Shown here: one piece after another, positions 6,952 to 46,008 of the stretch | Layout of the letters: the number at the start of each line of letters is the position of its first letter | Numbering within the stretch: the stretch's first letter is position 1 | The notes under the pieces: model-generated | Databases searched by the model: none | What the model was told of the DNA's origin: nothing | Seen by the model: only the letters and a program-made list of their open reading frames with translations | Position numbers and translations under genes: made by a program | Assembly: GCA_047639355.1 (NCBI GenBank) | Contig: JBLIOC010000001.1 | Coordinates: forward strand, 3,215-67,214 | Length of the DNA: 64,000 nt | Origin: Minisyncoccia bacterium | Lineage (GTDB): Bacteria > Patescibacteriota > Minisyncoccia > Phycocordibacterales > UBA918 | Direction: 5' to 3'

Positions 6952-9645
6952 GTGGAGAGGCAAAGTAGTGTGAAATCGCTACTAATTCAAACGAAAGAAC
7001 TTATGTCAACATCAAAAAAGAAACCAATAACTGCATGGGAAGAGCCGTCAGGTGCTGAGGCACCCAAGATTATTGTTCGTGGTGCCAGGACTCATAATCT
7101 CAAAAATATTGATGTTGAGATGCCTCGCGGAAAAATGATAGCTATTACCGGCCCGTCAGGCTCTGGAAAGTCATCACTTGCCTTCGATACTATTTTCGCT
7201 GAGGGTCAACGTCGATATGTTGAGTCTCTCTCACCCTATGCCAGACAATTTTTGAATAAAATGCAAAAACCTGATGTTGATGAAATTTCAGGTCTTTCGC
7301 CAGCAATATCAATTGATCAAAAGTCTGCTTCTCGAAACCCTCGTTCTACAGTCGCTACAATTACAGAAATTTACGACTACCTACGTATTGTTTATGCCAG
7401 GATCGGACAACCGTACTGTTTAGATGTTGATGTACCAATCCAAAAGCTATCCCAAGATGAAATCCTAGGTATAATTTTAAAATCAATTGAGGACAAAGAA
7501 GTAAAAAAGGCAAAAAAACAGCAGTCAGAAAGTGTGTTAGGAATAGAACTATCAAAGGGTAGGGTTTCAATATTTTCACCTGTCGTAGTTGGCCGGAAGG
7601 GTGAGTATTATCAGATGCTCTATGATTTGCTAAACAAGGGCTACGAGGCAGTAAAAATTGACGGTAATATAAAGCAATTAAGAGAGAAAATTGTTTTAAC
7701 AAAGACTAAACGGCATGATATAGATGTACTGGTTGATGAAATATACGTAAGTGAGTTTATTAACGACCCAAAAGGTTCACGTGAACGATTGTCGGAAGCT
7801 GTTGAATTGGCTTTGGCTGAATCAAAAGGCCTTGTAAAAATTGAAAGTCCTGATGGCGCAGAGAGAACTCTTTCCGCAAAATTTATTTGCCCAATTGACG
7901 GTTCATCTTTTCCTGAAGTTGAACCTAGATTGTTTTCCTTCAATTCACCGTACGGAGCCTGTCCTGAGTGTAACGGACTTGGAGTTATAGGTATTTTTCA
8001 AAGCGATGAATGTCCAAAATGTGAAGGAGCCAGACTACGTTCTGAGGCCCTTAGGGTATATCTAGGTGGAGATGATGAACATCTTGGCACGAACATTGTT
8101 GATTTTACTCGAATGACGGTTGGCCAAGCCGCTGATTTTGTTTCTGGACTAAAGCTTTCAAAAAAAGATCATGACATAGCTTGGCCAGCTTTGCGGGAAG
8201 TTATTGAGCGTCTTGATTTTATGAAAGATGTTGGAATTGAATACCTAACTCTTGATCGTCGAGCAAATACTTTATCTGGCGGGGAAGCGCAGCGAATTAG
8301 ACTAGCTTCACAGCTGGGTTCTGGTTTAGTGGGTGCGCTGTATGTTCTTGACGAACCAACCATTGGTCTTCATCAGCGAGACAATGACAAGTTAGTTAAA
8401 ACTCTATTAGAACTGCGAGATCTAGGAAATACTATCATCGTTGTAGAACACGATGAGGACACTATTCATGCTGCTGATTATCTAATTGATATCGGACCAG
8501 GAGCTGGTGTACGCGGAGGCGAGGTTATAGTGGCTGACTACATGCAAAAACTTTTGTCTGAGAAAACGAATACTTCTGGTTCTGTCACTCTTGATTATCT
8601 TCGTGGTGACAAAAAAATTGCAGTGCCTGAGCGTCGCACTAGTGAAAAAGGGAAGATTAAAATAACTGGAGGAAAGGCTTTTAACATTAAAAATCTTAAC
8701 GTTGATATTCCACTTGGTCGGCTGATTTGTGTGACGGGCGTGTCAGGCTCTGGCAAGTCTACCTTTATGTACGAAATCCTAGACAGAAACTTGAAAGCTA
8801 GATTGGAAAAACGTCATCGTACAGCTAAGACATATAATTGTAAATCTATTACGGGCACGGAGTATCTAGGTCGGTCGGTGCTGATTAATCAGTCACCGAT
8901 TGGTCGCACTCCACGAAGTAATCCAGCTACGTACACCGGTGCCTTTACACATATTCGTGATTTATTTGCGGCCACAAGTGAAGCTAAAGCGCGGGGTTGG
9001 AAGCCGGGAAGATTTAGTTTCAATGTTAAAGGTGGACGCTGTGAAGCCTGTCAAGGAAATGGAGTCATTGCGGTGGAGATGCATTTTTTACCAACCGTCT
9101 ATGTTACATGTGATATTTGTGACGGCAGTCGTTTTACAAATGAAACACTAGAGGTGACTTTTAGAAAAAAGAATATTTATGAAGTTCTTCATTTAACTAT
9201 AGAAGATGCTCACAAATTTTTTGTTGATATACCAGCTATTCAAGAAAGATTAAAAGCAATGCTTGATGTTGGTTTAGGTTATCTAGAGCTAGGTCAAAGC
9301 GCCACCACTCTATCGGGAGGTGAAGCGCAGCGTGTAAAAATTGCTTCTGAACTGTATCGACCGCACACCCAAAAAACAATTTACCTTCTTGATGAGCCAA
9401 CTATTGGCTTACACTATGAAGACGTAAAAAAGCTTATTGAAATTTTACAGAAACTTGTGAATGCGGGGAATACTGTCATGGTTATTGAACACAATCTGGA
9501 TTTAGTCAAAAGCGCAGATTATATTATTGATATTGGTCCCGAAGGAGGACAAAAGGGCGGTCAAGTTGTAGCAAAAGGTACTCCTGAAGAAGTTGCTGAT
9601 AATCCTAAGTCATATACTGGAGCTTACCTTAAAAAAGTTCTCTGA
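6952..9645 (+). CDS. uvrA: Excinuclease ABC subunit A (UvrA)
   Basis: Two ABC ATPase modules ([22 protein letters not shown], two LSGGEAQR signatures). Zn-finger cysteines are present ([16 protein letters not shown]). The frame opens at GTG 6952; an alternative ATG start is at 7003 (MSTSKKK). Confidence 0.93.
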
Positions 9646-9684: not shown

Positions 9685-10920
9685 ATGAATAAGTCTGATC
9701 TAGCAAGAAAAAAATTGCCTGACAAACCAGGTGTCTACTTCTTTCTTGGTACAAGAAAGAAAATTCTTTACATCGGAAAAGCAACTTCACTTATGAATCG
9801 TGTGCGTAGCTATTTTACGAGTGATATTAAAGAGAAACGATCCTCCTTGATTGAAAAAATGGTGCTAGAGGCAAAGACCATTGAGTACACAAAAACTGAC
9901 AGTGTTTTGGAAGCCTTAATTCTTGAGACTAATCTCATACGTACACATAAGCCCTTTTATAATACGCGAAGTAAAGATGATAAAAGTTACAATCATTTAA
10001 TTATTACAAATGAGGGATTTCCTAGAGTATTAGTGGTGAGGGGTAAGGATTTGACTGAGCAGTTTGTGGAGTCAGCTATTAAATATCACTTTGGGCCGTT
10101 TCCAAGCGGTCAATTATTTCGTGAAGCTTTAAAAATAGTTCGTAAATTATTTCAATTTTATGACACTAAAGCCCCAATTGGTGAAGAGAAAAATAAGATG
10201 GCCAAAGGAAAGATTGATTTTAATCGGCAGATCGGCCTTTATCCAGAAAAACAATCAAAGCGTGAATACAACAAGACAATTCGACACTTGCGACTATTTT
10301 TTGAAGGGAAGAAGCACCAGCTTATTAAAGAGCTAGAAATGGAGATGGTCACTTTGGCCAACGTCGAAAAATTTGAAGCTGCTAATGTGATAAAGCAACG
10401 TATATTTGCTCTTAATCATATACAAGATATTGCCCTTATAAAAGATGAATCTCGAGTCTACCGTGATGAGAAACGTGTGCGGATTGAAGCCTATGATATT
10501 GCCCACCTTCAAGGTGAAGACATGGTTGGAGTAATGACTGTTCTTGAAAGTGGGGAACCTGTCAAAAGTGAGTATCGTAAATTTAAAATTGGAAACTTCA
10601 CTAAAGCCAATGATACAGGCGCTCTAAAGGAAGTTCTCAGTCGAAGACTGAAGCACGAAGAATGGCCAATGCCACAAATTATAGTTGTGGATGGTGGTGC
10701 GGCCCAAAAGAATGCAGCTCAGCTTATTTTGAGCCAAAAAAATATGGTGATTCCGGTTGTGGCTGTCGTCAAAGACGATCGTCATAAACCAGTCCGCCTA
10801 ATCGGTCAAAAAATAATTCTCGAATTGCATAAACATTCCATTTTGTTAGCTAACGCTGAGTCACACCGTTTTGCTGTTAACTATCATCGAACTAAGAGAA
10901 GTAAGCATTTACGTGCATAA
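9685..10920 (+). CDS. uvrC: Compact UvrC (GIY-YIG, UVR and RNase H-like endonuclease domains; no C-terminal HhH2)
   Basis: GIY-YIG N-terminus (GVYFFLGTRKKILYIGKA). UVR-type helix (VTLANVEKFEAANVIKQRIFAL). C-terminal nuclease domain (RIEAYDIAHLQGEDMVGV ... VVDGGAAQ). It is 411 aa against about 600 in canonical UvrC. Confidence 0.8.
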   Translation: MNKSDLARKKLPDKPGVYFFLGTRKKILYIGKATSLMNRVRSYFTSDIKEKRSSLIEKMVLEAKTIEYTKTDSVLEALILETNLIRTHKPFYNTRSKDDKSYNHLIITNEGFPRVLVVRGKDLTEQFVESAIKYHFGPFPSGQLFREALKIVRKLFQFYDTKAPIGEEKNKMAKGKIDFNRQIGLYPEKQSKREYNKTIRHLRLFFEGKKHQLIKELEMEMVTLANVEKFEAANVIKQRIFALNHIQDIALIKDESRVYRDEKRVRIEAYDIAHLQGEDMVGVMTVLESGEPVKSEYRKFKIGNFTKANDTGALKEVLSRRLKHEEWPMPQIIVVDGGAAQKNAAQLILSQKNMVIPVVAVVKDDRHKPVRLIGQKIILELHKHSILLANAESHRFAVNYHRTKRSKHLRA

Positions 10921-11211: not shown

Positions 11212-12480
11212 ATGTTCTTCATTGCCGTATTAAACAAATCTAAAATGCTTAAAATTCACACAAAATTTTGTTACCTAGCAATCATTTCAATACTAACGGT
11301 TTTATTCTTTGCAGCTAGTCTTTCATTCATCAACACAGCTAATGCTGGTTCTGCAGACAGTCTGACTGGCTACGCCTGGAGTGATAATATTGGCTGGATA
11401 AGCTTCAATGATACAAATAATTCTGGAACGGTCAATTACGGTGTTGATGTTGCTACCGGGTCGGGTTTATTCTCTGGCTACGCCTGGAGTGATAATATTG
11501 GCTGGATATCCTTTTGGCCTGGTGACGTAATTGGTTGCCCCTCTGGTCCCGGTACTTGTAACCCTACTCTTGACTGGAACACTGGTGTAATTACCGGCTG
11601 GGCTCGTGCTTGTGCTGGAACTGCAGACGCGGCCTGTGCACTTACCTCTTCCCGAACAGACGGCTGGGACGGCTGGATTAGTCTTTCTGGAGTAGCTACC
11701 GATTCTTCAGCTTCAACGTATGGAGTTCTTGTTAATGTTACCACTGGTGCTTTTTCTGGACAAGCTTGGGGTAGCACCAATGTTGGTTGGATTTCGTTTT
11801 CAGGTACAGAAGGTACAGGATGGGGTGTTGATGGTATTCTCCCCCCTGCATCTGCAACCCTTAGTTCAGATCCAGTACCCGGCTGCATCATTCCGAATGG
11901 TGATAGTACTTGCCCTGTAGATTTAACCTGGAGTATACTATTCTCAAGTGACACAAGTGTATACAATTTCTCGCTTGGTACCACAATCTCAACCGTTGCT
12001 GCTGGTACAGAACCTTCTTACCCACTAAACCCTGGAGTAAACGTTATTGAAGCTCGAGACGGTAGTAATATCCTCAGGACTATTACTCCTACTGCTGGCT
12101 GTTCCACACCACTCGATTTCTGGGACAGTGCTGAGTGTGGTACTATACCTACTCTAGATATTACTCCCAGTCTGTCTGCTGGCTCTCAGATAATTAGATC
12201 TGGTGAATCAGCTGATGTAGAAATTGTCATTATTTCAGATTACAATTTAACTTGTCAACTGAATGGAGCAGAAATAACTCCTGTCGATCTTACTTACGAT
12301 TCTGCAACTAGTGAAATCAGAAATAGTTCAAATAGCGCCATACCTGCTACTGGTTACCCTACAAGACAACTTTATTCTAAGCAAGCTATTTCCATTGTTT
12401 GTACAGTCGACGCAGACCCAACTATCTCACTTTCAGGTGAATACATTATTGAGGTGATTGGTACCGTACAGGAGATTTAG
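11212..12480 (+). CDS. Secreted tandem-repeat protein (four GxAWSxNxGWISF repeats plus an Ig-like C-terminal region)
   Basis: Signal peptide with probable cleavage at TANA/GS; the probable start is at the internal Met near 11245. Four repeats of (G)YAWSDNIGWISF / GQAWGSTNVGWISF. An exact 35-nt DNA repeat occurs at 11366-11400 and 11474-11508. Confidence 0.6.
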   Translation: MFFIAVLNKSKMLKIHTKFCYLAIISILTVLFFAASLSFINTANAGSADSLTGYAWSDNIGWISFNDTNNSGTVNYGVDVATGSGLFSGYAWSDNIGWISFWPGDVIGCPSGPGTCNPTLDWNTGVITGWARACAGTADAACALTSSRTDGWDGWISLSGVATDSSASTYGVLVNVTTGAFSGQAWGSTNVGWISFSGTEGTGWGVDGILPPASATLSSDPVPGCIIPNGDSTCPVDLTWSILFSSDTSVYNFSLGTTISTVAAGTEPSYPLNPGVNVIEARDGSNILRTITPTAGCSTPLDFWDSAECGTIPTLDITPSLSAGSQIIRSGESADVEIVIISDYNLTCQLNGAEITPVDLTYDSATSEIRNSSNSAIPATGYPTRQLYSKQAISIVCTVDADPTISLSGEYIIEVIGTVQEI

Positions 12481-15072: not shown

Positions 15073-18000
15073 ATGATTGATACAAAGTCCCCAGCTCCTT
15101 CTACAACTCCAACATCAAAGTCAGCTCGATCTTGGCTTATTATGGCAGCGGTGGGTGTTTTTGCAGCTATTGCTTTCGGTGTTTTATACCTATTCGTTCT
15201 AGCCCCATCCATTCCCGACGGAAATATTGGATGGTTTTTGTTTTCATTTGCGACAGGTCTTACGATGATCGTTATGCCGTGCACACTTCCACTGGCATTT
15301 GTAATCGTTCCTCTGTCTATGGGAAAGGGTCTTATTCGCGGTATCGGAATGTCTCTTGCATTCGGTCTTGGTATAGCTGTCACTCTTTCTCTTTATGGAG
15401 TAGCGGCAGCTCTTCTTGGAGGTGTAGCTATCGACGCTCTTGGTGCTGATCTTGATTCAATTAAAAACTGGGTCTATACAGTCGCTGGTGTCTTTGCTCT
15501 CGTTTTTGCATTGAGTGAAATTGGTTTGATGAATTTTCATATGCCCACATACAAGGGTGCAGCTCCGGCTTCGATACAGAAGCATGGAGAGTTGATAAAA
15601 GCTTTTATGTTGGGGCTTTTCCTTGGAAATGTTGGAGTAGGATGTCCTCATCCAGCTACTCCACTTATTTTGATAGAAATCGCTTCAAGTGGTGACGTGT
15701 TATACGGATGGCTTCTATTCCTGACTCATGCAATCGGCCGAATACTACCGTTGCTTCTATTAGCATTTATGGCAATCATTGGTGTAAATGGACTCAACTG
15801 GCTAATGTCCCGAAAGGATGCTGTTGAACGAACAACCGGCTGGGCAATGGTTTTCGTAGCAGGCTTTATTCTTACTCTAGGATTGTTCTCTCACGATTGG
15901 TGGGTCAATTCTGGAATTCACAGCGGACTTGAGACACTTACGCAAGAAGCTAGGTTCAACGCGCTTATAAACGAAACGCTTGATACCAATGTAGCTCACG
16001 CGCACGGATTAGAAGAAGGGGCTGGTCTATTTGGGTTACCTCTGGAGTGGGGTAATTGGTTCTTAGTGACGGTTTGGCTATTGCCAATGTGGTTATGGTA
16101 TAGAAAAAAGAAGAAGGACATTGAAGAAGGAGCTGACTTGTGTCAGGAAAAAGTCTTAAAGATAAAGAGAAATTTCCTTATTGTGATTGCTATATTTATC
16201 ATAATGATATTCACGCACTTTTTACCACAGAATTTTTACCTGAATTCTATTAGTGGTGGTGGTCACGGTGAAACGACTAGCCACGATGGTGCTGACGGCC
16301 ATCATGATGAAGGTGCATCAGCTAACCCTGACGGTATCCATGCAATGCCAGACGGCACAATCATGAATGCTAATGGAGACGTGCTAAAAGGTGGACATCT
16401 AATGCCGGACGGCACAATCATGCTTGCAGACGGAACGACGATAGGAGGTACTCCTTCGAACATACCTGCAGAAGCAACGCTGTATGGAGTTGATGTAGAA
16501 GATCTTCCGTTTGCTAACGTCCCTGAGACAGTAGAATTGGTAGATGGTGATAGTTATGATATCACTGCATTCTATGTACAGAAAGAGATAGGGAACAGAA
16601 CACTTCGTATGCTCGCATACAACGGCTCGGTTCCTGGACCCTTTATTAAGGCTCCGCAAGGAGCTGAGGTGACAATCAACTTTACGAACAACACAGACTT
16701 GGACCAAACCATCCACTCACACGGTCTACGATTAGACAACAACTTTGATGGAGTACCTGGTGTAACCCAGAATGTTGTTAAGCCTGGAAATTCACACTCT
16801 TATACTATTAAGTTTGAAGATGCCGGGGTTTATTGGTATCACCCACACACTCGTGATGATTACGGACAGGAAATGGGTCTGTACGGTAACTATATTGTAG
16901 AACCAATTGATGGTTACACATCACCAGTTAATCGACAAATTCCACTGGTTATTGATGACATTCTCATTGAGAACGACAAGATCTTTGACTTCTATAAAGA
17001 AATTACAAATTTTGCTTTACTTGGTCGATTCGGAAACGAATATTTGGTAAACGGTGAACAGGATTACTCACTCGAACTAGAGAAAGGTGAAGTTGTAAGG
17101 TTCTTGGTTACAAATGTTTCAAATGCAAGATCGTACAGTCTGTCGCTGCCAGGCGCGGAAATGAAAATGGTCGGTGCTGACATTGGACACTACGAGCGAG
17201 AGGAATTTGCAGAAGATTTCTTGATTTCGCCTTCTGAGAGAATGATTGTAGAAGCTTACTTCAAAGAATCGGGTACTTATTCTTTGACTCACACCACTCC
17301 GGACGGTGAGGTCGTACTTACTGAGTTTGTGGTTGGAGAAGAGTCAGTAGATGAATCATATGCTGAAGAATTCGACATTCTAAACGAAAACCAAGACGTA
17401 ATAGAAGAGTTCAGCACTTTCCGATCATATATTAGTAAAGACGCAGATAAGAAGCTATTACTTACTGTTGACCTAGAAGGACAGGTAGATCATAGTGCCC
17501 ACGGACATGCTACTGATGATGCTGCAGTGGATCCATATGCTGGTATTCATGCAATGCCTAACGGTGACGTTATGCTCGGATCTGGAGAAGTTATAACAGG
17601 TGCTACCGTAATGGATGACGGTACGATTGTCCTTGCTGACGGTACTGTTCCTGGCGCTCCACCTGTTCCAAAGACAAGACTTGAATCACTACAATGGAAT
17701 GACGAAACAATGTCCGACAAGGTAAACACTTCAGAGAATGTTACTTGGAAGATGATCGATGAAGAGACAGGAGCAAGCAGTATGATGATTCCAATAGCTG
17801 ACTGGACTTTCGTAGAGGGAGACATTGTCAAGATCCGATTAACTAATGATTCAACAGCCGATCATGTAATGCAACATCCAATCCACCTACACGGACAACA
17901 ATTTGTTGTTCTGACTGAAAATGGAGAGATTAATGACAATATGGCATGGAAGGACACTGTATTAGTATTCCCTGGTGAAGTCGTTGAAATATTAGTAGAC

Positions 18001-18834
18001 ATGAGCAACTTAGGGGAGTGGATGAGCCACTGTCATATTTCTGAGCACTTGCATGCCGGGATGATGATGCAATTTAGGGTAGAAGATGAATCTGGTTATG
18101 CAACAGGAGATGAATTCAGGTCTACTGTAACGGCTGGAATGGTTCACAAATCAAACGCTCCTACTATAAAGAAAAGCTCACGAGAATTTACCTTTGAGTC
18201 GGAAACTTCATCATTTGGCTACACAGTTTATGCTGAAAAAACCAGGTTCAAAGTAGGTGAAAAACAAGAGATCACACTGACTTTGTTTGATCCTGAGTTA
18301 AATGGTGTTGTGTTGTCTGAGAAGTATCCCGACCCACTTGGAATAACATTTGTGAAGAGTAATAATACTCAGAACTTTTACACTTACCCTGGGAACACAA
18401 CCTTCGATGCCGTCGATCATGGAGGATCAGCTCACGACAATAGTGATGGGCATCACAACGACACGATAGCTCCCTCATCAGAGCCGGTACATGACAACAG
18501 TGACGGGCATCATGGGTTTAATCTAATACCTACAGCTCACGCGCACGGCGGCACAGATGATGGTCACGCAGATGCTACTGGTCAAGTTTACACTTATACT
18601 GTGCCTGTAGCCTTCCCGGAAATTGGTGCGTACAAAGCCTTTGTTGAATTCGTGCCAGAAGGTGTAGATAAGCCGATTATTTTGAGTATGGATATAGAAG
18701 TGATCTCCTCGAACTTCTCAGTAGACAACTATGGTTGGAGCGTAAGTATGAAGTGGTGGATATTACTCATAGCCTCCCTGATCCTGACTGTACCTTTGGT
18801 GATCGGAGTTCGTAAGTACATTAACGTTAAATAA
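15073..18834 (+). CDS. Giant fusion of a CcdA/DsbD-like thiol-disulfide transporter TM domain with a multicopper oxidase, His/Met-rich Cu-binding repeats and a C-terminal TM anchor
   Basis: The N-terminal ~340 aa are polytopic with CcdA-type Cys motifs (IVMPCTLPLAF; GVGCPHPATPL). Multicopper oxidase motifs present: HSHGLR, WYHPHT, HPIHLHGQQF, HCHISEHLHAGMMM. Repeated GIHAMP(D/N)G..M and DNSDGHH segments. Final TM WWILLIASLILTVPLVIGV. Confidence 0.8.
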   Translation: MIDTKSPAPSTTPTSKSARSWLIMAAVGVFAAIAFGVLYLFVLAPSIPDGNIGWFLFSFATGLTMIVMPCTLPLAFVIVPLSMGKGLIRGIGMSLAFGLGIAVTLSLYGVAAALLGGVAIDALGADLDSIKNWVYTVAGVFALVFALSEIGLMNFHMPTYKGAAPASIQKHGELIKAFMLGLFLGNVGVGCPHPATPLILIEIASSGDVLYGWLLFLTHAIGRILPLLLLAFMAIIGVNGLNWLMSRKDAVERTTGWAMVFVAGFILTLGLFSHDWWVNSGIHSGLETLTQEARFNALINETLDTNVAHAHGLEEGAGLFGLPLEWGNWFLVTVWLLPMWLWYRKKKKDIEEGADLCQEKVLKIKRNFLIVIAIFIIMIFTHFLPQNFYLNSISGGGHGETTSHDGADGHHDEGASANPDGIHAMPDGTIMNANGDVLKGGHLMPDGTIMLADGTTIGGTPSNIPAEATLYGVDVEDLPFANVPETVELVDGDSYDITAFYVQKEIGNRTLRMLAYNGSVPGPFIKAPQGAEVTINFTNNTDLDQTIHSHGLRLDNNFDGVPGVTQNVVKPGNSHSYTIKFEDAGVYWYHPHTRDDYGQEMGLYGNYIVEPIDGYTSPVNRQIPLVIDDILIENDKIFDFYKEITNFALLGRFGNEYLVNGEQDYSLELEKGEVVRFLVTNVSNARSYSLSLPGAEMKMVGADIGHYEREEFAEDFLISPSERMIVEAYFKESGTYSLTHTTPDGEVVLTEFVVGEESVDESYAEEFDILNENQDVIEEFSTFRSYISKDADKKLLLTVDLEGQVDHSAHGHATDDAAVDPYAGIHAMPNGDVMLGSGEVITGATVMDDGTIVLADGTVPGAPPVPKTRLESLQWNDETMSDKVNTSENVTWKMIDEETGASSMMIPIADWTFVEGDIVKIRLTNDSTADHVMQHPIHLHGQQFVVLTENGEINDNMAWKDTVLVFPGEVVEILVDMSNLGEWMSHCHISEHLHAGMMMQFRVEDESGYATGDEFRSTVTAGMVHKSNAPTIKKSSREFTFESETSSFGYTVYAEKTRFKVGEKQEITLTLFDPELNGVVLSEKYPDPLGITFVKSNNTQNFYTYPGNTTFDAVDHGGSAHDNSDGHHNDTIAPSSEPVHDNSDGHHGFNLIPTAHAHGGTDDGHADATGQVYTYTVPVAFPEIGAYKAFVEFVPEGVDKPIILSMDIEVISSNFSVDNYGWSVSMKWWILLIASLILTVPLVIGVRKYINVK

Positions 18835-19368: not shown

Positions 19369-21729
19369 ATGACAAAACTCGTACTTAAAGTAAAAGGGAT
19401 GCATTGCGCTTCTTGTTCGATACTTATAGACAAATTGCTTAAGAAACAAGAGGGTGTAATTAATTCTGCAACAAGTTACGGAGCTCAGAAAGTAGCTTTA
19501 GAATTTGATGAATCAATAATTACACTTGAAAAAATTGATGAGTTTGTAAACAAGCTTGGTTATGACGTCATCCGACCTGACGAGGACACTGGTTCATTAG
19601 AAGAAGCAGAAGCTGCTGAAGAAAAGGAACGTTTGGTTGCAAAGAAGAGAGTTATTGCTTCGTTTGCAATAGCGTCACCAATCATTGCCTACTACATGGG
19701 TGTTCACATGTTCAACTTACCTCACATTCACCAACTGTGGGGGATTGATCTTAACTACTTCTATTGGGCTCTTTCGACTCCTATTCAATTTGTAATAGGG
19801 TGGACATTCTACAGAAATGCTTGGGCGGCTGTGCGTATTGGCTCTGCTAATATGGACGTACTCGTAGTATTAGGAACTAGTGCTGCTTACTTCTACAGTA
19901 TGATCGGTTTCTTGTGGTTCAACATCGATCATCCTTTCTGGGAGAGTTCCGCCGCACTTATTTCATTTATTCTTCTTGGACGCTACGTGGAAGTAGTGGC
20001 TAAAGGCAAGGCTAGTAGTGCCATCAAGGAACTACTTAAACTTGAAGCAAAGGAAGCTAATGTCATTCGAGATGGCACTGAAGTCACTATCCCACTAAGC
20101 GACCTTGTCGAAGGTGATGTTATTGTAGTGAAGCCGGGAGGTAAGATTCCAGTTGATGGAATTATCGTTGATGGGGAAACTCATATTGATGAAAAGGTTG
20201 TTACAGGTGAATCGTTTCCAGTTAAAAGAGTTAAAGGAGATGAGGTTATTGGAGCAACCGTAAACTTAGAAGGAAGATTTAAATTTAGAGCAACAAAAGT
20301 TGGTAAAGACACACTGCTCAATCAGATCATAACCATGGTTGAGGAAGCTCAAGCTTCACGTGCTCCGGTTCAAGACTTGGTAGATAAGGTAAGTGAGTAC
20401 TTTGTACCCGCTGTAATTGTTATTTCTGTAATTACTTTTGTCGGCTGGGTATTCATTGCAGAACTACCAGTTAGAGCCGGAGTTCTAAGAATGATTGCCG
20501 TATTGGTTATCTCATGCCCGTGCGCCATGGGACTTGCTACACCAACCGCTTTAGTTGTAGGTATTGGACAAGCTGCAAAATATGGAATTATCCTCAAAGG
20601 AGGAGAGGCTTTGGAGAAAGCTTACAAGATTACAGCCATCTGCTTAGATAAAACAGGGACACTAACAATCGGAAAGCCAATCGTTACAGACTTCGTTCTT
20701 GTATCTAAAATGACAGAGTCTGATGCCTCCATTCTCGCAGCGTCAGCTGAAATGGGGTCTGAACACCCACTAGCTCGAGCCGTGATAGAGCATGCAAAGG
20801 ACTTTGGAAAGACTACGGAACCTAAAAACTTCGAAGCTGTTCAAGGTATGGGTCTAAAAGCAACGATAAAACTTAAAGGTAAGGATCATCAGGTTGCAAT
20901 TGGAAATCCTAAGTTTATGGAGAAACTTAAAAAAGACATAACTTCATATAAATCAGAATTAGATAGACTACAATCAGAGGCAAAAACAACTGTATTCCTA
21001 GTTGTAGATGGCAAGATAGTTGCTTTGATAGCAATGGCTGATGCATTAAAGCCTTTTGCAAAAGAAGCAATCACAGCTATGCGTAACATGAACAAGGAGG
21101 TTATCATGATTACTGGTGACAACCAAAAAACGGCTGACGCTATAGCTAAAGAAGTTGGTATTGAGAGGGTGCTTGCAGAAGTATTACCACAAGACAAAGC
21201 AGCAATGGTGAAAAAGTTGCAAAGTGAGGGAATGAATGTTGCGATGGTAGGGGATGGTATAAATGACTCACCAGCGCTAGCTCAGTCGAATCTAGGTATA
21301 GCAATTGGTTCAGGTACAGACGTAGCGATAGAGACTGGAGATGTTGTTCTTGTTAAAGATGACTTAAGAGACGTAGTTACTGCAATACAGCTTTCTAGTA
21401 AGACAATCAAGAAAATTTGGCAGAACTTGTTTTGGGCATTCTTCTACAACGTTGCAGCAATCCCTATTGCAGCTGGTGGTCATTTATTGTTTACTCAAGA
21501 ATCGTTTGGTATTGCAGCTGGGTGGGTGGTAGCTATACAAGATAAGTTTGGTTCAGCTGGACAGATTTTCTTCAACCTTTCACAAGCGACACTACGTCCA
21601 GAAATTGCCGGGTTTGCAATGGCGTTTAGCTCGGTATCAGTGGTTGTAAACTCGATGGTACTGCGGTTGTACACACCACCAATGGAAAAACTATCAAACG
21701 CTCAAGATAAAAAAAAGCAAGTCAAATAA
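19369..21729 (+). CDS. copA: Copper-translocating P1B-type ATPase
   Basis: N-terminal HMA domain (GMHCASCS), TM CPC motif (SCPCAMGLATP), DKTGTLT phosphorylation site, hinge GDGINDSPAL. Confidence 0.93.
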   Translation: MTKLVLKVKGMHCASCSILIDKLLKKQEGVINSATSYGAQKVALEFDESIITLEKIDEFVNKLGYDVIRPDEDTGSLEEAEAAEEKERLVAKKRVIASFAIASPIIAYYMGVHMFNLPHIHQLWGIDLNYFYWALSTPIQFVIGWTFYRNAWAAVRIGSANMDVLVVLGTSAAYFYSMIGFLWFNIDHPFWESSAALISFILLGRYVEVVAKGKASSAIKELLKLEAKEANVIRDGTEVTIPLSDLVEGDVIVVKPGGKIPVDGIIVDGETHIDEKVVTGESFPVKRVKGDEVIGATVNLEGRFKFRATKVGKDTLLNQIITMVEEAQASRAPVQDLVDKVSEYFVPAVIVISVITFVGWVFIAELPVRAGVLRMIAVLVISCPCAMGLATPTALVVGIGQAAKYGIILKGGEALEKAYKITAICLDKTGTLTIGKPIVTDFVLVSKMTESDASILAASAEMGSEHPLARAVIEHAKDFGKTTEPKNFEAVQGMGLKATIKLKGKDHQVAIGNPKFMEKLKKDITSYKSELDRLQSEAKTTVFLVVDGKIVALIAMADALKPFAKEAITAMRNMNKEVIMITGDNQKTADAIAKEVGIERVLAEVLPQDKAAMVKKLQSEGMNVAMVGDGINDSPALAQSNLGIAIGSGTDVAIETGDVVLVKDDLRDVVTAIQLSSKTIKKIWQNLFWAFFYNVAAIPIAAGGHLLFTQESFGIAAGWVVAIQDKFGSAGQIFFNLSQATLRPEIAGFAMAFSSVSVVVNSMVLRLYTPPMEKLSNAQDKKKQVK

Positions 21730-34320: not shown

Positions 34321-37170
34321 ATGTTTATGCATAAGCGTTTTAAGCACAATGAAATAGAGGAGAAGTGGCAGACTAAGTGGAAAACTGACAAACTTTACCG
34401 AACCACAAACAACTCTGCCAAGCCAAAAGCTTATGTGCTTGACATGTTCCCGTACCCATCTGGTGAAGGTCTACATGTAGGACACCCTAAGGGATATATC
34501 GCCACCGACATCTATTCCCGGTTCAAGCGCATGACTGGCCACGAAGTTCTTCACCCAATGGGTTTTGATGCTTTCGGCTTACCGGCTGAAAACTATGCGA
34601 TTAAAAACAAAGTGCACCCACGAGAGGCAGTAGAAACAAATGTTGCTCGTTTTAAGGAACAGCTTGAGGTTCTAGGTTTTGATTATGATTGGGATAGAGA
34701 AGTAAACACCACTGACCCTGAATACTACAAGTGGACACAGTGGATTTTCATACAGCTTTTCAAAAAAGGATTGGCATACGAAAGTTATGAGCCAATCAAC
34801 TGGTGCCCCGGCTGTCAGACTGGCTTGGCAAACGAAGACTTGGAAGCAGACGGCACTTGTGAGCGTTGTGACTCAGTTGTAGAAAAACGACCGATGAGAC
34901 AATGGGTTTTAAAGATTCGCGAGTATGCTGACCGAATGCTTGAGGATTTAAACACGTTAGACTGGCCTGAACATATAAAAGAGGCCCAGCGCAACTGGAT
35001 AGGGCGCTCTGAAGGCGCAGAAATCGACTTTGAGCTGTCTGTAGGTGAAAAGCTATCAGTATTCACAACCAGACCAGATACTCTCTACGGAGCGACTTAC
35101 ATGGTAATTGCTCCAGAGCATAAGCTTGTTCAAAAATACAAAGAACAAATCACTAACTGGACGGAAGTCGATACCTACATCACAGAGGTGAAAGACAAGA
35201 AAGAGATGGACAGACTGGATGACACTAAGGAAAAGACAGGGGTAAAACTAGAAGGAATCACAGCAACAAACCCAGCTAGCGGAGAAGAGATTCCTGTATA
35301 CATCGCAGACTACGTACTAGCAAGCTACGGAACAGGAGCGATTATGGCTGTTCCTGCCCATGATGAGAGAGATAATGCTTTCGCTAAGAAGTTTGGGATT
35401 CATATCAAACAAGTCGTAACTACAATTTTTAACCATAATTCTGAACGTGATGAAAAGGTAAGACGTGGTGTATATGCACTACTTGAGAATGATGATGATG
35501 AGTATTTGATTCAACAAATTACCCTGCCTGCAAAGAATGGTGATGGTGCTTTCTATTGGCTACCTGGAGGAGGTGTAAACGAAGGTGAAAATGATACGGA
35601 TACTCTAAAAAGAGAAGTTTTGGAAGAAACAGGATATCTTGATTTTTGTGTCAAAGAAAAAATTACTAGGGTTCTATATGACTACTCCGATGGAGCACCA
35701 AGACAAGGTAGAAAGGTTGTTGACGTTTACCATGTAAAACTAAAAAGTGAGAAGAGGGAAGAAATTCAATTAGACGAAGACGAAATTAAATGGGGTCTCG
35801 AATCACAATGGGTTAAAAAAAGTGATCTGCAAAGCACTCTAAAAAATGGATCTCCCGAACGATCAAAATTGATACAGTTTGTTGTTGATGTACACAACGG
35901 TCTGGTTTCTACACAATCTGGAGAACTAATGAACTCAGAAAAATTTGATGAAATGACTTCTAAAGAAGCAGGCAAAGCCATTGTAGAAAAAGTTGGTGGA
36001 CGAATGACTACTACTTATAAGATTAAAGACTGGGTATTTTCTAGACAACGTTATTGGGGAGAACCGATTCCAATAATTCACTGTGAGAAGTGTGGACCTG
36101 TTGCTGTGCCAGAAAGTGAACTTCCTCTCGTCCTGCCTGAGGTTGAGAACTACGAGCCAGCTGGTGACGGACAATCTCCTCTCTCCAACATTGATGAGTG
36201 GGTAAACACTACTTGTCCGGCTTGTAACGAACCTGCAAAACGAGAAACCAACACCATGCCACAATGGGCGGGTTCTTCGTGGTACTACTTGCGATACATG
36301 GATCCTAACAATGATAAGGCGTTAGTTTCGAAGGAAAATGAAAAGTATTGGGCACCAGTTGATGTCTATGTAGGAGGTGATCACGCTGTTCGTCATCTTA
36401 TTTATGCTCGTTTCTGGCACAAATTTCTTTACGATATTAATGTCGTAAGTACTATCGAACCGTTTCAACGACTCGAATTTCTAGGTTTCATTCTCGCTGA
36501 AGACGGACGAAAAATGAGTAAGCGGTGGGGTAACGTAATCAACCCGGACGACATTGTAAAATTAGTTGGAGCTGATACGTTGCGCGTTTATGAAATGTTC
36601 ATGGGACCGTTCGAGAACGTTATCGCATGGAGTCAGGACGGTTTGGCTGGTTCTCGCCGCTTCTTAGAACGAGTGTATGGTTTGTCGCAACATATTCAGG
36701 ATGAAGAGCCAAAGGAAGTGACAACTCTACTGCACAAGACAATAAAGAAGGTTACAGATGATATTGAAGGTTTTAAGTTCAATACTGCAATTAGTGCGAT
36801 GATGATATTACTTAATCAGGCTGAAAAGACAGGTATTAGTAAGGAAGGGTACAGGTCATTTCTTAAATTTTTGGCCCCTTTCGCTCCGCATCTAACTGAG
36901 GAGTTGTGGGCGGAAAATGGAAATATGACCAGTGTTCATACAGACGACTGGCCAGTTTACATCTCTAGTTTGGCCCAAGATGATGTGGTAACTATTGGCG
37001 TCCAGATCAATGGCAAAATGCGTGGAGAAATTTCTATTTCCCCAAAAGCAACACAGGTAGAAGCAATGGAAGAAGTTGGTGGAAATCAGTCTCTTTTGGC
37101 AAAGTTTGATAGCGCTAAAATTAAAAAAATAATCTATGTTCAGGGTAGAATCATCAATCTCATAATTTAG
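34321..37170 (+). CDS. leuS: Leucyl-tRNA synthetase carrying an inserted NUDIX hydrolase domain
   Basis: HIGH motif (HVGHPKGY), CP1 editing motifs (TTRPDT; GTGAIMAVPAHDERD), KMSKS (RKMSKR). An inserted ~150-aa domain at about nt 35440-35905 carries a perfect Nudix box (GGVNEGENDTDTLKREVLEETGY). Confidence 0.93.
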   Translation: MFMHKRFKHNEIEEKWQTKWKTDKLYRTTNNSAKPKAYVLDMFPYPSGEGLHVGHPKGYIATDIYSRFKRMTGHEVLHPMGFDAFGLPAENYAIKNKVHPREAVETNVARFKEQLEVLGFDYDWDREVNTTDPEYYKWTQWIFIQLFKKGLAYESYEPINWCPGCQTGLANEDLEADGTCERCDSVVEKRPMRQWVLKIREYADRMLEDLNTLDWPEHIKEAQRNWIGRSEGAEIDFELSVGEKLSVFTTRPDTLYGATYMVIAPEHKLVQKYKEQITNWTEVDTYITEVKDKKEMDRLDDTKEKTGVKLEGITATNPASGEEIPVYIADYVLASYGTGAIMAVPAHDERDNAFAKKFGIHIKQVVTTIFNHNSERDEKVRRGVYALLENDDDEYLIQQITLPAKNGDGAFYWLPGGGVNEGENDTDTLKREVLEETGYLDFCVKEKITRVLYDYSDGAPRQGRKVVDVYHVKLKSEKREEIQLDEDEIKWGLESQWVKKSDLQSTLKNGSPERSKLIQFVVDVHNGLVSTQSGELMNSEKFDEMTSKEAGKAIVEKVGGRMTTTYKIKDWVFSRQRYWGEPIPIIHCEKCGPVAVPESELPLVLPEVENYEPAGDGQSPLSNIDEWVNTTCPACNEPAKRETNTMPQWAGSSWYYLRYMDPNNDKALVSKENEKYWAPVDVYVGGDHAVRHLIYARFWHKFLYDINVVSTIEPFQRLEFLGFILAEDGRKMSKRWGNVINPDDIVKLVGADTLRVYEMFMGPFENVIAWSQDGLAGSRRFLERVYGLSQHIQDEEPKEVTTLLHKTIKKVTDDIEGFKFNTAISAMMILLNQAEKTGISKEGYRSFLKFLAPFAPHLTEELWAENGNMTSVHTDDWPVYISSLAQDDVVTIGVQINGKMRGEISISPKATQVEAMEEVGGNQSLLAKFDSAKIKKIIYVQGRIINLII

Positions 37171-41921: not shown

Positions 41922-42800
41922 TTGTTAAAAAGCCTCTCTTGTAGAAACCCCATTTTCATACCCATGCCAATCAAAATTAAAAAAGCCGATGGAAAATTAG
42001 AGTTTTTTAAAGTAGAGAAACTCAGACGTTCTCTTCGTCGAGCCGGTGCAGGTCCAGATGAAATAAATGAAATTGTAAGTAATGTTGATAATACGCTTTA
42101 CGACGGTATTCAAACTCAAGAAATCTACAGAAATGCTTTCAATTTACTCACTCATAGCCGTTCGCCAGCAGCAGCTCGTTATTCACTGCGACGTGCTCTT
42201 TTTAACCTAGGTCCGACCGGATTTCCCTTTGAAAAATTTTTAGCCCGGCTTTTCCAGGAAGATGGCTATTCAACACGGACAGGAATCATGCTTCAAGGTA
42301 ATTGTGCACCTCATGAAATAGACGTTGCTGCCTACACTGAGAACCATAGTTTTATCGGTGAAGCTAAATTCCATTCTAGACCTGGTATTAAGTCTGATCT
42401 TCAAGTAGCAATGTACTCGTACGCTCGTTTTCTCGACCTTCGTGACCAAAAAATTTGCCATGAGGATATTTGTGGAATAAAGGAATTTTGGCTAATTACT
42501 AACACAAAGTTTACTAGTACTGCTCAAGACTATGGTAATTGTGTCGGCTTAAATATGCTAAGTTGGGATTACCCAAAACGAAATAATCTACACGATCGGA
42601 TACAGCGTAGTGGAATTTACCCCATTACAGTCCTTCAAAATATTTCTTCGTCCCAAGCTGAGACTTTAATTGCTAGAGACATTATTCTTTGCCGTGACAT
42701 TGTTGATCAAGAGCATGTACTGAGACACCTCCATCTGTCCAAACCAAAGCAAGAAGCTTTGATGCAAGAGGCTCGTGAAATATCCAAGTTCCGATCATAA
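41922..42800 (+). CDS. ATP-cone domain fused to an Mrr-type (PD-(D/E)XK) restriction endonuclease-like domain
   Basis: ATP-cone (IKIKKADGKLEFFKVEKLRRSLRRAG ... TQEIYRNAF). Mrr_cat-like core with D...EAK (HEIDVAAYTENHSFIGEAKFHS). The probable start is the internal Met near 41964. Confidence 0.65.
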   Translation: MLKSLSCRNPIFIPMPIKIKKADGKLEFFKVEKLRRSLRRAGAGPDEINEIVSNVDNTLYDGIQTQEIYRNAFNLLTHSRSPAAARYSLRRALFNLGPTGFPFEKFLARLFQEDGYSTRTGIMLQGNCAPHEIDVAAYTENHSFIGEAKFHSRPGIKSDLQVAMYSYARFLDLRDQKICHEDICGIKEFWLITNTKFTSTAQDYGNCVGLNMLSWDYPKRNNLHDRIQRSGIYPITVLQNISSSQAETLIARDIILCRDIVDQEHVLRHLHLSKPKQEALMQEAREISKFRS

Positions 42801-42893: not shown

Positions 42894-43448
42894 ATGGTAG
42901 AAGAAACACAGGACGTGCAGAAGACACTAGTAGCATTTGCCGTCGGACTCCTTATTGGTGGAATGTTGGTATGGGCATTCTCTGGACCAACAGTCAATGC
43001 ACCAGAGGCAACCAATGAAGACGAAGCTGAAGATGTGAACGCTCAAGTAAGAGATACAGACTCACTTATCTCATCTGAAGCAATTGAGTCCGAAGACACA
43101 AAGGCGGAAGAAGTTCCAAAAACGGAACTTAAGGTTGGTAAGGGTAACGTAGTTGTACCAGACCAGAAAGCAAGCGCATCTGTCAAACTGGACAGTGCAA
43201 CTTTCCCTGTCAGTGAAGGTTGGATTGGGATTCGTGAATATGACAATGATCAGCTGGGATATATCCTGGGTGTAGTTCGTTTTAGTGAATCACAAGATCT
43301 GGTTCCTTCCACAATAACTCTCCAGAGGCCAACCTCAGTAGGTAGTCGTTATGCGGTCGTTGTCTTTACTGAAGACGGAGATTTTGCCTTCAATCTAGCC
43401 GGTGACGTACAAATTGACACAATTTTTGATACTTTTGTAGCAAAATAA
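42894..43448 (+). CDS. Membrane-anchored acidic extracytoplasmic protein
   Basis: N-terminal TM helix (LVAFAVGLLIGGMLVWAF), then a Glu/Asp-rich linker and a beta-rich domain. Confidence 0.5.
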   Translation: MVEETQDVQKTLVAFAVGLLIGGMLVWAFSGPTVNAPEATNEDEAEDVNAQVRDTDSLISSEAIESEDTKAEEVPKTELKVGKGNVVVPDQKASASVKLDSATFPVSEGWIGIREYDNDQLGYILGVVRFSESQDLVPSTITLQRPTSVGSRYAVVVFTEDGDFAFNLAGDVQIDTIFDTFVAK

Positions 43449-43530
43449 CTAGTGTTCGAACTTAAGGTTGAAAAGAGCTGGCTTTAGGTCAGCTTTTTCT
43501 TGTCTCCTGTCATAATGCTATACTACAAAC

Positions 43531-44316
43531 ATGGCAGAATATACATACAAATATAATCCAAACAGAAGTGCCGAATGGAACTATGGAGGTGCAAAGTGGA
43601 AGCTTTCGCGCTCCAAAATAGATTTTTTCTTTGAGTGTCCACGATGCTTCTATTTAGATAATGTACTAGGTACAAAACGTCCTGGATTCCCTTCCTTTAA
43701 TCTTAATATTGCTGTCGATGAGCTTTTCAAAAAGGAGTTTGATGTCCATCGTGAAGGACAAACAAAGCACCCGATAATGGATGAGTACGGTATAGACGCT
43801 GTACCATTTCAACATGAAATGATCGACACGTGGCGCGATCCATTTGTCGCGATAACTACAACTCACGAACCAACCGGCTTAACGGTTAGTGGAGGAGTCG
43901 ACGACATCTGGGTAACACCAGAAAAGAAGCTTATAATTATCGACTACAAAGCAACATCTAAAAACGGTAAAATTGATAAGCTCGGTGACAGTCCATGGGA
44001 ACTACAGTATGCAAGACAACTCGGTGTGTACAGATGGCTTTTAGAGCAAAACGGCTTTACAGTCGAAGATACTGGCTATCTTGTCTACGCTAATGCGAGC
44101 AAGGATGAACCAGGGTTTGATAACAAGCTTGTCTTTGAAACTACATTAGTGTCAGTTGAGACAGATGTTGACTGGATCGAACCAGCAATCTACGATATTA
44201 AAAACTGCCTAGATCAAAAAGATTTACCTAAAATTGGCGAAAAATGTGAATTCTGTCCCTACCGTGAAGCCTCAGGAAAGAAGCTCCAGGCTGTTCACTT
44301 TGCTAACAAAAAGTGA
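43531..44316 (+). CDS. Cas4-like Fe-S PD-(D/E)XK nuclease (DUF83/RecB-nuclease family), stand-alone
   Basis: N-terminal ECPRCFYL (compare Cas4 YCPRKFYL). Nuclease motifs GGVDDIW ... IIIDYK and QYARQLGVY. C-terminal CEFCPYRE. Four Cys bracket the nuclease core. Confidence 0.65.
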   Translation: MAEYTYKYNPNRSAEWNYGGAKWKLSRSKIDFFFECPRCFYLDNVLGTKRPGFPSFNLNIAVDELFKKEFDVHREGQTKHPIMDEYGIDAVPFQHEMIDTWRDPFVAITTTHEPTGLTVSGGVDDIWVTPEKKLIIIDYKATSKNGKIDKLGDSPWELQYARQLGVYRWLLEQNGFTVEDTGYLVYANASKDEPGFDNKLVFETTLVSVETDVDWIEPAIYDIKNCLDQKDLPKIGEKCEFCPYREASGKKLQAVHFANKK

Positions 44317-44366: not shown

Positions 44367-45140
44367 TTACCTGCGAAAATTCCATCTATTGAAAGCTAGA
44401 AGCAAAAGCGATAACAGTAATCCAAAGAAAAATACACCTCCTCCATCACCCCATAGTCCAAAGCCATTTACGAATAACACAAACAGTACGATTGTGACCA
44501 GAAGCTGGACAGTTACATATTTTTGTCTGAATACAGTTTTTCTAGTTTTGGGTGCATACGCTAAAGCAGTCGGTAACAAGGTAAATAAGAATACAATTGA
44601 GAACATTGCAAAAACTGATTTTTTATAAGAAAAATGACTACTTACAGCAAGTATTTCTTGATCAGCTCTAATTTCTTGATACTTATTAATATCTCCGTCA
44701 GAAATATATTTTGCCATTGAAACAACCTTCTGCACATCCCCATCACATCCTTTAAAATAGTCAGAATCAAGTTCTGCTGAACATCGATTAGATGCTCCTT
44801 GGAGTGAAATGCGCCCACTGATTACGTAAATACCATCAATAGTAAAAACCGAGCTTGTTGCCTGAACCATAGAGACAAATTCTACGCTCAAAGTATTTTC
44901 TCTCATCTCATCATAAGAAGATCCGCAATTCTCGCCATTTGGTCTAGGAACAATCGAAAACGAATCAACACATACGCTGTCTTTACAATACACGTACGAC
45001 TCCTGATGCAGGTTGCCACACCTATACGCTTCAGTATTTGAGGGGTAAGAAAGTACAATTAAACAAGCAAAGGACAAACAAGCAAAAAGATTTTTCATAA
45101 ATAAATGGTACCATGACAGCATGAATGATTTTACACTCAC
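44367..45140 (-). CDS. Secreted Cys-rich protein with C-terminal TM helices
   Basis: Signal peptide (ACLIVLSYPSNTEA), 10 Cys in the ectodomain, two C-terminal hydrophobic helices. Confidence 0.5.
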   Translation of the reverse strand: MSVKSFMLSWYHLFMKNLFACLSFACLIVLSYPSNTEAYRCGNLHQESYVYCKDSVCVDSFSIVPRPNGENCGSSYDEMRENTLSVEFVSMVQATSSVFTIDGIYVISGRISLQGASNRCSAELDSDYFKGCDGDVQKVVSMAKYISDGDINKYQEIRADQEILAVSSHFSYKKSVFAMFSIVFLFTLLPTALAYAPKTRKTVFRQKYVTVQLLVTIVLFVLFVNGFGLWGDGGGVFFFGLLLSLLLLAFNRWNFRR

Positions 45141-45378
45141 GGTTCGCGAAGTGGTCCGTAAAATCCCTAGGGGGAAAGTTATGACCTATTCTGAGGTCGC
45201 CAAAGCAGCTCGAAATCCTAAGGCAGCGCGGGCAGTGGCTAATGTTATGGCTAAGAATTTTGACGAAGGTGTACCTTGTCATCGAGTTATTAGGAGTGAT
45301 GGTAAACTCGGAGGCTACAACAGAGGAGGGGAGGCTGTTAAAAGAAGTTTGTTACTAGCCGAGGGTGCTGTATTATGA
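45121..45378 (+). CDS. Mini O6-alkylguanine-DNA alkyltransferase-family protein (C-terminal DNA-binding/active-site domain only)
   Basis: 85 aa carrying VPCHRVIRSDGKLGGY (the PCHRV active-site motif of the MGMT/Ogt family). Confidence 0.7.
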   Translation: MNDFTLTVREVVRKIPRGKVMTYSEVAKAARNPKAARAVANVMAKNFDEGVPCHRVIRSDGKLGGYNRGGEAVKRSLLLAEGAVL

Positions 45379-45405: not shown

Positions 45406-46008
45406 TTGCGTATGTATACATATAAATTAGAACAAGCTATTAAGGCGGCGGGAATCTTACATCAAGACCAGTTACGAAAAGGCTCTGTACCTTTGCCATA
45501 CATAACGCACCTGATGGCCGTTATGCTTATTTTACGTGATTACACTTCCGAGGAAGACACGCTAGTTGCCGCCCTCCTCCATGACACACTAGAAGACACT
45601 GACTACACAGCTGAAGAATTAAAGGTTGATTTTGGTGAAAATGTAGCTGTTCTAGTTCAAACTTTGACCGAACCGAAAGTTAGGAATGGAGTAGAGGTTC
45701 CCTGGTTGGAGAAAAAAAAGGAATATGCTAAACAACTTCGTAAGGGGAGAATAGAAGCAGTAATGATAGCTGCGGCAGACAAGGCTCATAATTTTCGCTC
45801 ATTAGTAGAGGAATACTACGAAGACCACAACAGATTTCTGCAAGATTTTGGACCACATTTAAGCGATAGGCTAGAAGCGTACCAGACCATATCTAATGCC
45901 ATTAACAGCCGCTTGCCAGATGGTATAGTACATGAGTTCAACAACACTTTTCAAGAATATAAAAATTTCATTTACGATGTCCAAAAATCCCTCACTAAAA
46001 CTGACTAA
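45406..46008 (+). CDS. HD-domain protein, Rel/Spo-type (p)ppGpp hydrolase-like (small alarmone hydrolase)
   Basis: HLMAVMLIL ... VAALLHDTLEDT matches the Rel/SpoT HD_4 signature; 200 aa. Confidence 0.7.
   Translation: MRMYTYKLEQAIKAAGILHQDQLRKGSVPLPYITHLMAVMLILRDYTSEEDTLVAALLHDTLEDTDYTAEELKVDFGENVAVLVQTLTEPKVRNGVEVPWLEKKKEYAKQLRKGRIEAVMIAAADKAHNFRSLVEEYYEDHNRFLQDFGPHLSDRLEAYQTISNAINSRLPDGIVHEFNNTFQEYKNFIYDVQKSLTKTD

Follow-up and report, generated by a model that had tools for sequence, protein, structure and literature searches.

The DNA analysed here, a stretch of 64,000 nucleotides from a Minisyncoccia bacterium (GCA_047639355.1, contig JBLIOC010000001.1, positions 3,215-67,214, forward strand; hereafter the window), carries a gene for a Cas4-like PD-(D/E)XK nuclease that is unconnected to CRISPR. 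The gene is vertically inherited, and it is a core gene of Paceibacteria-type Patescibacteria that keeps a fixed chromosomal position. Its product is probably an active stand-alone RecB-like nuclease with a four-cysteine metal staple, which would process ends or flaps of single-stranded DNA (ssDNA) in the 5'->3' direction in housekeeping repair and recombination, coupled to Ogt. We favour a basic role in repair or recombination over one in immunity because of the core-gene conservation, the fixed locus and the pairing with ogt.

The strand opposite the open reading frame (ORF) is crowded with stop codons, so that the ORF is real, and an identical protein is already public (MFT7644397.1), annotated as 'CRISPR/Cas system-associated exonuclease Cas4 (RecB family)' in a Ca. 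Paceibacteria metagenome-assembled genome (MAG). Its homologs in the databases number more than 7,800 at E <= 1e-3; the best 120 are 72-100% identical to it and all about 261 amino acids (aa) long, and their named sources are Patescibacteria (Paceibacteria, Kaiserbacteria, Nomurabacteria). An exhaustive homolog search gave 231 clusters (50% identity) at E <= 1e-30 and 1,615 at E <= 1e-3. The conservation of the gene and its motifs, listed below, was read from an alignment of 92 sequences reaching down to 32% identity.

43531..44316, plus strand: Cas4-like PD-(D/E)XK nuclease gene, ATG start, 261 aa
43636..43647, plus strand: N-terminal CxxC (C36, C39) in ECPRCFYL; C36 invariant, C39 at least 90% conserved
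43657..43851, plus strand: family-specific module, about aa 43-107 (L58, D63, K67, E69, D71, R74, P92, W101, G107), from conservation and AlphaFold2 secondary structure
43900..43950, plus strand: predicted catalytic core, D124 (motif II, VDDIW) and D138-x-K140 (motif III, IIIDYK); D124 and K140 invariant, D138 at least 90% conserved
44017..44031, plus strand: RecB-family QxxxY motif (Q163, Y167); Y167 invariant, Q163 at least 90% conserved
44245..44274, plus strand: C-terminal CxxC (C239, C242), then S248; C239 and C242 invariant

All the motifs that a preliminary description of this DNA had claimed are found in the ORF, namely ECPRCFYL at residues 35-42, VDDIW at 123-127, IIIDYK at 135-140, QYARQLGVY at 159-167 and CEFCPYRE at 239-246. 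The residues invariant in the alignment are C36, R74, G121, D124, K140, Y167, C239 and C242, and conservation of at least 90% is seen for C39, D125, D138 and Q163 and for a family-specific block made of S26, R27, L58, D63, K67, E69, D71, P92, W101 and G107. The RecB-type motif series of Cas4 (D ... (D/E)xK ... QxxxY) is present as D124, D138-Y-K140 and Q163-xxx-Y167, and the predicted PD-(D/E)XK catalytic set is complete. The module at about residues 43-107, for which AlphaFold2 predicts helices at 57-76, 81-85 and 98-102, is left uncovered by the Cas4 profiles PF01930 and TIGR00372, which align from residue ~122-130 onwards.

In regards to family assignment, the top Pfam model is PF12705 PDDEXK_1 (49.8 bits against a cut-off of 22, E = 5.8e-13, residues 92-246), and by its gathering threshold the protein is a member of that superfamily; the motif set and the homology together are well beyond chance. 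Both curated Cas4 models fall below their cut-offs, with 21.1 bits against 22.7 for PF01930 Cas_Cas4 and 39.5 bits against 65 for TIGR00372, and PF12684 DUF3799 does as well (19.5 against 26). The family straddles the PF01930 threshold, since some homologs at 72-85% identity carry a precomputed match to that model. The Cas4 models of PADLOC match the protein at 1e-9 to 5e-12; its top PHROG is a family whose function is unknown, phrog_31195 gives a weak full-length match and phage exonuclease PHROGs also match. Sequence searches of the PDB, made with the single protein and with two profiles, stayed near noise (best 4ic1, E = 0.0027) and did not show the equivalence of the N-terminal cysteines residue by residue. 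The AlphaFold2 model built from the same 92 sequences is confident (pLDDT 93.9, pTM 0.90), and by fold comparison it is equidistant from Cas4, Dna2, AdnA, MGME1 and Exo5. It combines an alpha/beta core with cysteine ligands on N- and C-terminal helices, as in metal-stapled RecB-like nucleases, and from these features the protein is predicted to belong to the RecB-like, metal-stapled class of 5'->3' exonucleases. Given the two sub-threshold Cas4 models and the equidistant fold, the term Cas4-like fits the protein, and membership in the Cas4 family itself is not demonstrable. The earlier assignment to a stand-alone Cas4-like PD-(D/E)XK nuclease holds as to the kind of enzyme, with PF12705 and not Cas4 as the best profile.

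The cysteines of the family are laid out as CxxC...CxxC (C36, C39, C239, C242), a 2+2 arrangement, and all four are kept in 119 of the 120 closest homologs and in nearly all of 113 representatives that span both motifs. In canonical Cas4, AddB and Csa1 one cysteine is N-terminal and three are C-terminal (PMC3466216), and this pattern (C...CxxCx5C) is not the one found here. At position 248, where the last cysteine of CxxCx5C would stand, the protein has a serine, other members have Ala, Ser, Arg, Val or Ile, and just 17 of 271 sequences have a cysteine there; the profile alignments all stop at residue 246, 3-6 positions short of the end of the model. In the alignment with SSO0001 its CKYC falls on C239-C242. 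C36 would be the counterpart of the canonical N-terminal Cas4 ligand and C39 an extra, family-specific cysteine, and we infer that the fourth ligand may have been relocated to the N-terminal helix junction, at C39. An iron-sulphur (Fe-S) cluster is plausible, and the preliminary description was right about the four cysteines; its Fe-S assignment is less secure, given that the arrangement is 2+2 and not the canonical 1+3, and that the related DUF3799 structure 3L0A, a structural neighbour, holds zinc in the equivalent site (PMC3466216).

To place the gene in its chromosomal setting, we compared the window with 27 genome loci, all from Patescibacteria MAGs, and 80 further metagenome loci, the related loci totalling 122. 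In the 27 genome loci the gene order is kept as LeuRS, a sigma-like gene, a 439-aa gene, YceG, MnmA, the ATP-cone/AF1548-like gene, the 184-aa gene, the Cas4-like gene, ogt, HD_4, (M16 peptidases) and AlaRS. The Cas4-like protein has the highest mean identity of those compared (75.3%), ahead of AlaRS (72.0), the AF1548-like protein (69.9), MnmA (64.4), Ogt (63.6), LeuRS (58.4) and YceG (50.7). The immediate neighbours in the window are the following.

41922..42800, plus strand: fusion of an ATP-cone and an AF1548-type restriction-endonuclease-like domain (Pfam; PDB 1Y88, E = 6e-36)
42894..43448, plus strand: 184-aa protein with an N-terminal transmembrane-like segment, no significant family match
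44367..45140, minus strand: lineage-specific 257-aa ORF between the Cas4-like gene and ogt, local GC 0.36, no family match
45121..45378, plus strand: minimal Ogt/MGMT of 85 aa with a PCHRV active site (PF01035, 7.7e-29; TIGR00589, 78.3 bits against 46.4)
45406..46008, plus strand: stand-alone RelA/SpoT-type HD hydrolase domain (HD_4), from family profile matches

The association with these genes depends on how closely the nuclease itself is related, as shown by the counts at three levels of identity to the Cas4-like protein.

Identity of at least 66%: AF1548-like gene upstream in 34/34 loci, ogt downstream in 32/39, HD_4 downstream in 30/30
Identity of 55-66%: AF1548-like gene upstream in 12/12, ogt downstream in 14/19, HD_4 downstream in 3/16
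Identity of 45-55%: AF1548-like gene upstream in 3/30, ogt downstream in 4/38, HD_4 downstream in 1/29

The AF1548-like gene is thus upstream in 46/46 loci at 55% identity or more that have enough upstream flank, and the 184-aa gene lies directly upstream in 35/36 loci at 66% identity or more and in 6/17 at 55-66%. In relatives, ogt usually starts 5-30 bp past the end of the Cas4-like gene, and the pair is retained in a 58%-identical member whose neighbours have otherwise changed. The Ogt/MGMT of the window consists of the C-terminal DNA-binding/active-site domain alone, without the usual N-terminal domain, and the AF1548-like protein shows a PD-(D/E)XK-like EIDV...GEAKF signature. The 257-aa ORF on the minus strand is outside the conserved unit; the first 27 related loci contain no homolog of it, and none is seen near the Cas4-like gene in the 122. 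It is rich in cysteine, has C-terminal hydrophobic segments, overlaps the start of ogt by 20 bp and occupies the exact junction of the Cas4-like gene and ogt in relatives. It may be a spurious ORF or an insertion specific to the lineage.

Two signals read from the sequence precede the gene.

43471..43498, plus strand: hairpin followed by a T-run, terminator-like, after the 184-aa gene
43516..43524, plus strand: extended -10-like box (TGcTATACT), with 6 nt between it and the ATG

A similar GC-rich hairpin with a T-run is seen by eye in most related loci, and the -10-like hexamer stands at the same distance in 42 of 50 related loci whose spacers are otherwise unalignable. A simple scan of the window for promoters and terminators gave no more than background and missed these features, which emerged when loci were compared. 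The Cas4-like gene lacks a Shine-Dalgarno sequence upstream of its ATG; Shine-Dalgarno-like motifs precede only 2 of 55 window ORFs, and about 13 have an abutting -10 box, which suggests that leaderless mRNAs may be common in the source genome. Such boxes (often TGnTAtAcT) end 5-8 nt before the start codon, for example at the ORFs starting at 21821, 30234, 38396, 43531, 50974 and 52231. The Cas4-like gene would accordingly be first in a transcription unit of its own, probably leaderless and in the ancestral state shared with ogt, and the AF1548-like gene probably belongs to the preceding, separate unit.

The absence of a CRISPR array, of cas1/cas2 and of a RecBCD/AddAB partner from the 64 kb, as claimed from the sequence at the outset, was borne out by scans for arrays, Rfam families, cas models and large ORFs. 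No repeat array and no match to the CRISPR-DR family of Rfam occurs in the window, and no array-like repeats were found in 1.08 Mb made up of the window and the 122 related loci. Models of Cas1, Cas2, Cas3 and effectors have no match in the other 58 window ORFs, and the 25 commonest Pfam families near the divergent members include none of cas type. An adaptation module of cas1/cas2 beside an array, as expected of Cas4, is therefore not found in the material covered (the window and 122 loci for arrays, the 58 window ORFs for cas genes), and a CRISPR context is ruled out there. In regards to helicases, the nuclease is a single domain of 261 aa, neither fused to nor beside a superfamily 1 helicase in the manner of AddAB, RecBCD or AdnAB. 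The genes flanking it are the AF1548-like, 184-aa, Ogt and HD genes, the large window ORFs include no helicase-nuclease partner, and UvrB, at a distance of 41 kb, is the one helicase-like gene that the window was found to contain. The possibility, raised in the preliminary description as its own counter-case, that the gene is the nuclease part of a split helicase-nuclease encoded nearby is ruled out by this lack of an adjoining helicase.

The window is otherwise ordinary chromosome, with genes for UvrB, UvrA, UvrC, Ddl, LeuRS, YchF, YceG, MnmA, AlaRS, DnaK, DnaJ, an RND pump and copper handling. The GC content at the Cas4-like gene (0.40-0.41) equals that of its flanks, without a compositional island, and there are no integrase or phage genes near it; the GC and the conserved synteny argue against a genomic island or prophage. 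Since it lies outside cas loci and mobile genetic elements and is mainly vertically inherited, the gene is a solo Cas4 in the sense of Hudaiberdiev 2017.

The wider family is less uniform. At 55% identity or below the neighbours are not conserved, with 125 Pfam families in 112 flanking proteins, and divergent members (43-54% identity) are found in modules that resemble restriction-modification systems.

Locus L038: N6_N4 methylase, ResIII, nuclease, PIF1
Locus L090: type I methylase/S subunit, AAA_13, nuclease
Loci L039/L040: Eco57I/MmeI-type methylase
Locus L028: SNF2, methylase, ResIII, nuclease-HD_4 fusion
Loci L035/L036: HNH and Dcm

The nuclease is also fused to other domains, in representatives P0127, P0190 and P0223 to NUDIX, to GYF+TIR and to DUF2779 (a second PD-(D/E)XK-type domain), and in P0138 to HD_4. 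The Por_Secre_tail domain is typical of Bacteroidota, and a gene with this domain in the context of at least one member, P0141, indicates that the family probably extends beyond the Candidate Phyla Radiation (CPR).

In the reading that we consider most probable, C36, C39, C239 and C242 would bind one metal centre, Fe-S or zinc, holding the N- and C-terminal helices together like a staple, as in Cas4 and AddB. By analogy with the characterised members of the class, the enzyme would cut or resect ssDNA ends or flaps 5'->3'; the Cas4 protein SSO0001 is a 5'->3' ssDNA exonuclease with a four-cysteine Fe-S staple (PMC3466216). Rather than in immunity, it would act in housekeeping repair or recombination, processing ends that may be those of damaged or alkylated DNA, and would be functionally coupled to Ogt in this clade. 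Several points weigh against this proposal. The repair role leans on the adjacency of ogt, which is perhaps mere synteny, and in this window an inserted ORF separates the two genes. The cysteine arrangement is unlike every characterised Fe-S staple. Finally, the restriction-modification-like islands and the TIR fusion of distant members suggest that some of the family, at least, serves in defence.

A stronger version of the repair and recombination role, which we regard as rather improbable, would make the protein a distinct, essential-like subfamily of the Cas4 class. Its fourth ligand would have moved to the N-terminal CxxC, its cofactor may have switched, for instance to zinc or 2Fe-2S, and it would work with Ogt as the main nuclease of Paceibacteria for DNA ends and alkylation damage, in place of AddAB/RecBCD.

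A defence nuclease, that is, an effector or accessory of an uncharacterised innate immunity system that might degrade invading DNA with the adjacent ATP-cone/AF1548-like protein, seems unlikely at this locus. Hudaiberdiev 2017 proposes defence for some solo-Cas4 (PMC5704561), and the divergent members beside methylases with ResIII, SNF2, AAA_13 or PIF1 ATPases, or beside HNH and Dcm, agree with it, as do the member fused to GYF+TIR and the restriction-endonuclease fold of the AF1548-like upstream neighbour. In this clade, however, the gene has a fixed place among housekeeping genes, without a methylase or ATPase partner and without a compositional island, and, unlike typical defence genes, it surpasses aminoacyl-tRNA synthetases in conservation. 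Moreover, the terminator-like hairpin and a promoter of its own separate it from the AF1548-like gene.

We think it no likelier that the nuclease degrades imported or damaged DNA to feed the nucleotide pools of a nucleotide-auxotrophic organism, together with the nearby HD hydrolase. Such salvage would fit the HD_4 gene downstream in all 30 close loci, the fusions that join the nuclease independently to HD_4 and to NUDIX, and a study of a related lineage, Ca. Nealsonbacteria, that reports a lack of nucleotide synthesis and proposes that host DNA may be recycled by a DNA-degrading system (10.1101/2022.04.20.488981). The link to HD fades at 55-66% identity (3/16), however, while ogt stays, and the HD protein matches the (p)ppGpp-hydrolase type of RelA/SpoT rather than a known nucleotidase. 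The Cas4-class enzymes that have been characterised process DNA ends and are not bulk DNases, and the Cas4-like protein lacks both a signal peptide and a membrane anchor.

That the gene is a genuine Cas4 of CRISPR adaptation, working in trans with a CRISPR-Cas locus in another part of the genome, is very improbable, even though the public annotation says Cas4, the PADLOC Cas4 models match and some Parcubacteria hold type V-A systems with cas4. The scores under the curated Cas4 cut-offs and the non-canonical cysteine pattern speak against it, as does the lack of any cas gene or array found in the window or in the 1.08 Mb of related loci. The tree of 2017 labels the CAS-associated CPR Cas4 apart from the solo clade (PMC5704561), and CRISPR-Cas has been reported in only 2.4% of Parcubacteria/Microgenomates, yet the Cas4-like gene is widespread. 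The least probable alternative is a recently acquired phage or mobile-element gene (an anti-defence or recombination exonuclease), which the PHROG matches given above and five viral-contig relatives might suggest but which is effectively refuted at this locus by the synteny kept over wide divergence, the GC equal to that of the flanks, the lack of integrase or phage genes nearby and the remoteness of the viral structural matches (TM-score <= 0.53, <= 17% identity). Only five matches were found in 2.9 M viral contigs, so that the phage or anti-defence option floated in the preliminary description is unsupported for this gene.

Several other features of the window were recorded. UvrB (57-2099), UvrA (6952-9645) and UvrC (9685-10920), all on the plus strand, lie within its first 11 kb, and as all three are encoded, this reduced genome appears to have nucleotide excision repair. 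A 1253-aa protein (15073-18834, plus strand) joins a DsbD-type transmembrane domain to three multicopper-oxidase domains and stands beside a P-type ATPase with an HMA domain (19369-21729, plus strand), the two probably forming a copper-handling cluster. There are two direct repeats, one at 11366-11513 inside the ORF 11212-12480 (40 nt, 95% identity, 108 nt apart) and one at 16339-16434 inside the multicopper-oxidase gene (39 nt, 79% identity, 57 nt apart), each likely an internal protein repeat. LeuRS (34321-37170, plus strand) has a NUDIX domain (aa 381-517) inserted immediately following the CP1 editing domain; of 15 related loci, 6-7 have an insert there too, of about 150 aa and in three of them detectably NUDIX-like, and the rest have only 8-80 aa. 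The PADLOC models mad3 (3e-92) and mad8 (2e-31) match some window protein or proteins, probably the housekeeping DnaK and DnaJ and not a defence system.

Our findings do not overturn the current understanding of such genes. Few uncharacterised DNA enzymes of ultra-small bacteria and archaea are as widespread as the solo Cas4-like nucleases, and the Paceibacteria version acts like a core gene, which warns against taking a 'Cas4' annotation as evidence of CRISPR. The CxxC...CxxC ligand set also raises a simple question, Fe-S or zinc, on how the metal staple of RecB-like nucleases evolved.

Compared with the CRISPR-associated Cas4 proteins (SSO0001, 4IC1; Pcal_0546, 4R5Q; type I-C Cas4, 8D3L), to which it is 14-19% identical, the present protein has an extra conserved module of about 65 residues and an N-terminal fourth cysteine (C39) in place of CxxCx5C; its gene has no cas1, cas2 or array in the window, and it scores under both curated cut-offs. 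The nuclease domains of AddB, AdnA, Dna2 and Exo5 occur within helicases or are partnered with them and have cysteines in a 1+3 layout, whereas the present protein has neither a helicase domain nor an adjacent helicase. The DUF3799 exonuclease (E. rectale EUBREC_2131, PDB 3L0A) is phage-related and has a different context, and the PF12684 score of the present protein is below the cut-off. ACE1, an Argonaute-associated enzyme of the Cas4 family (9IAB/9IAC), is co-encoded with a prokaryotic Argonaute, and no Argonaute was found in the window.

The closest counterparts are the solo-Cas4 of CPR and DPANN, which like the present gene are stand-alone, away from cas genes and vertically inherited, and bear the same public name. 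Solo-cas4 genes show over-representation among environmental bacteria with small genomes, Parcubacteria and Nomurabacteria included (PMC5704561, Hudaiberdiev et al. 2017), and those of the CPR were described there as mainly vertical in their evolution and uncharacterised in function, with repair or defence proposed. The same paper states that all Cas4 have the four-cysteine module, giving no detail on the CPR solo clade, and its tree contains a 'solo' CPR clade whose tips are GI numbers only, so that the match to the present clade is by label. That the CPR has such genes is thus known already from publications and public annotation, and the suggestion in the preliminary description that a solo Cas4 is unusual was outdated. 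What the present analysis adds to the 2017 account, which describes neither the 2+2 cysteines nor the ogt/AF1548 neighbourhood nor the extreme conservation, is these three features together with the promoter architecture and the split of the family between housekeeping loci and restriction-modification islands.

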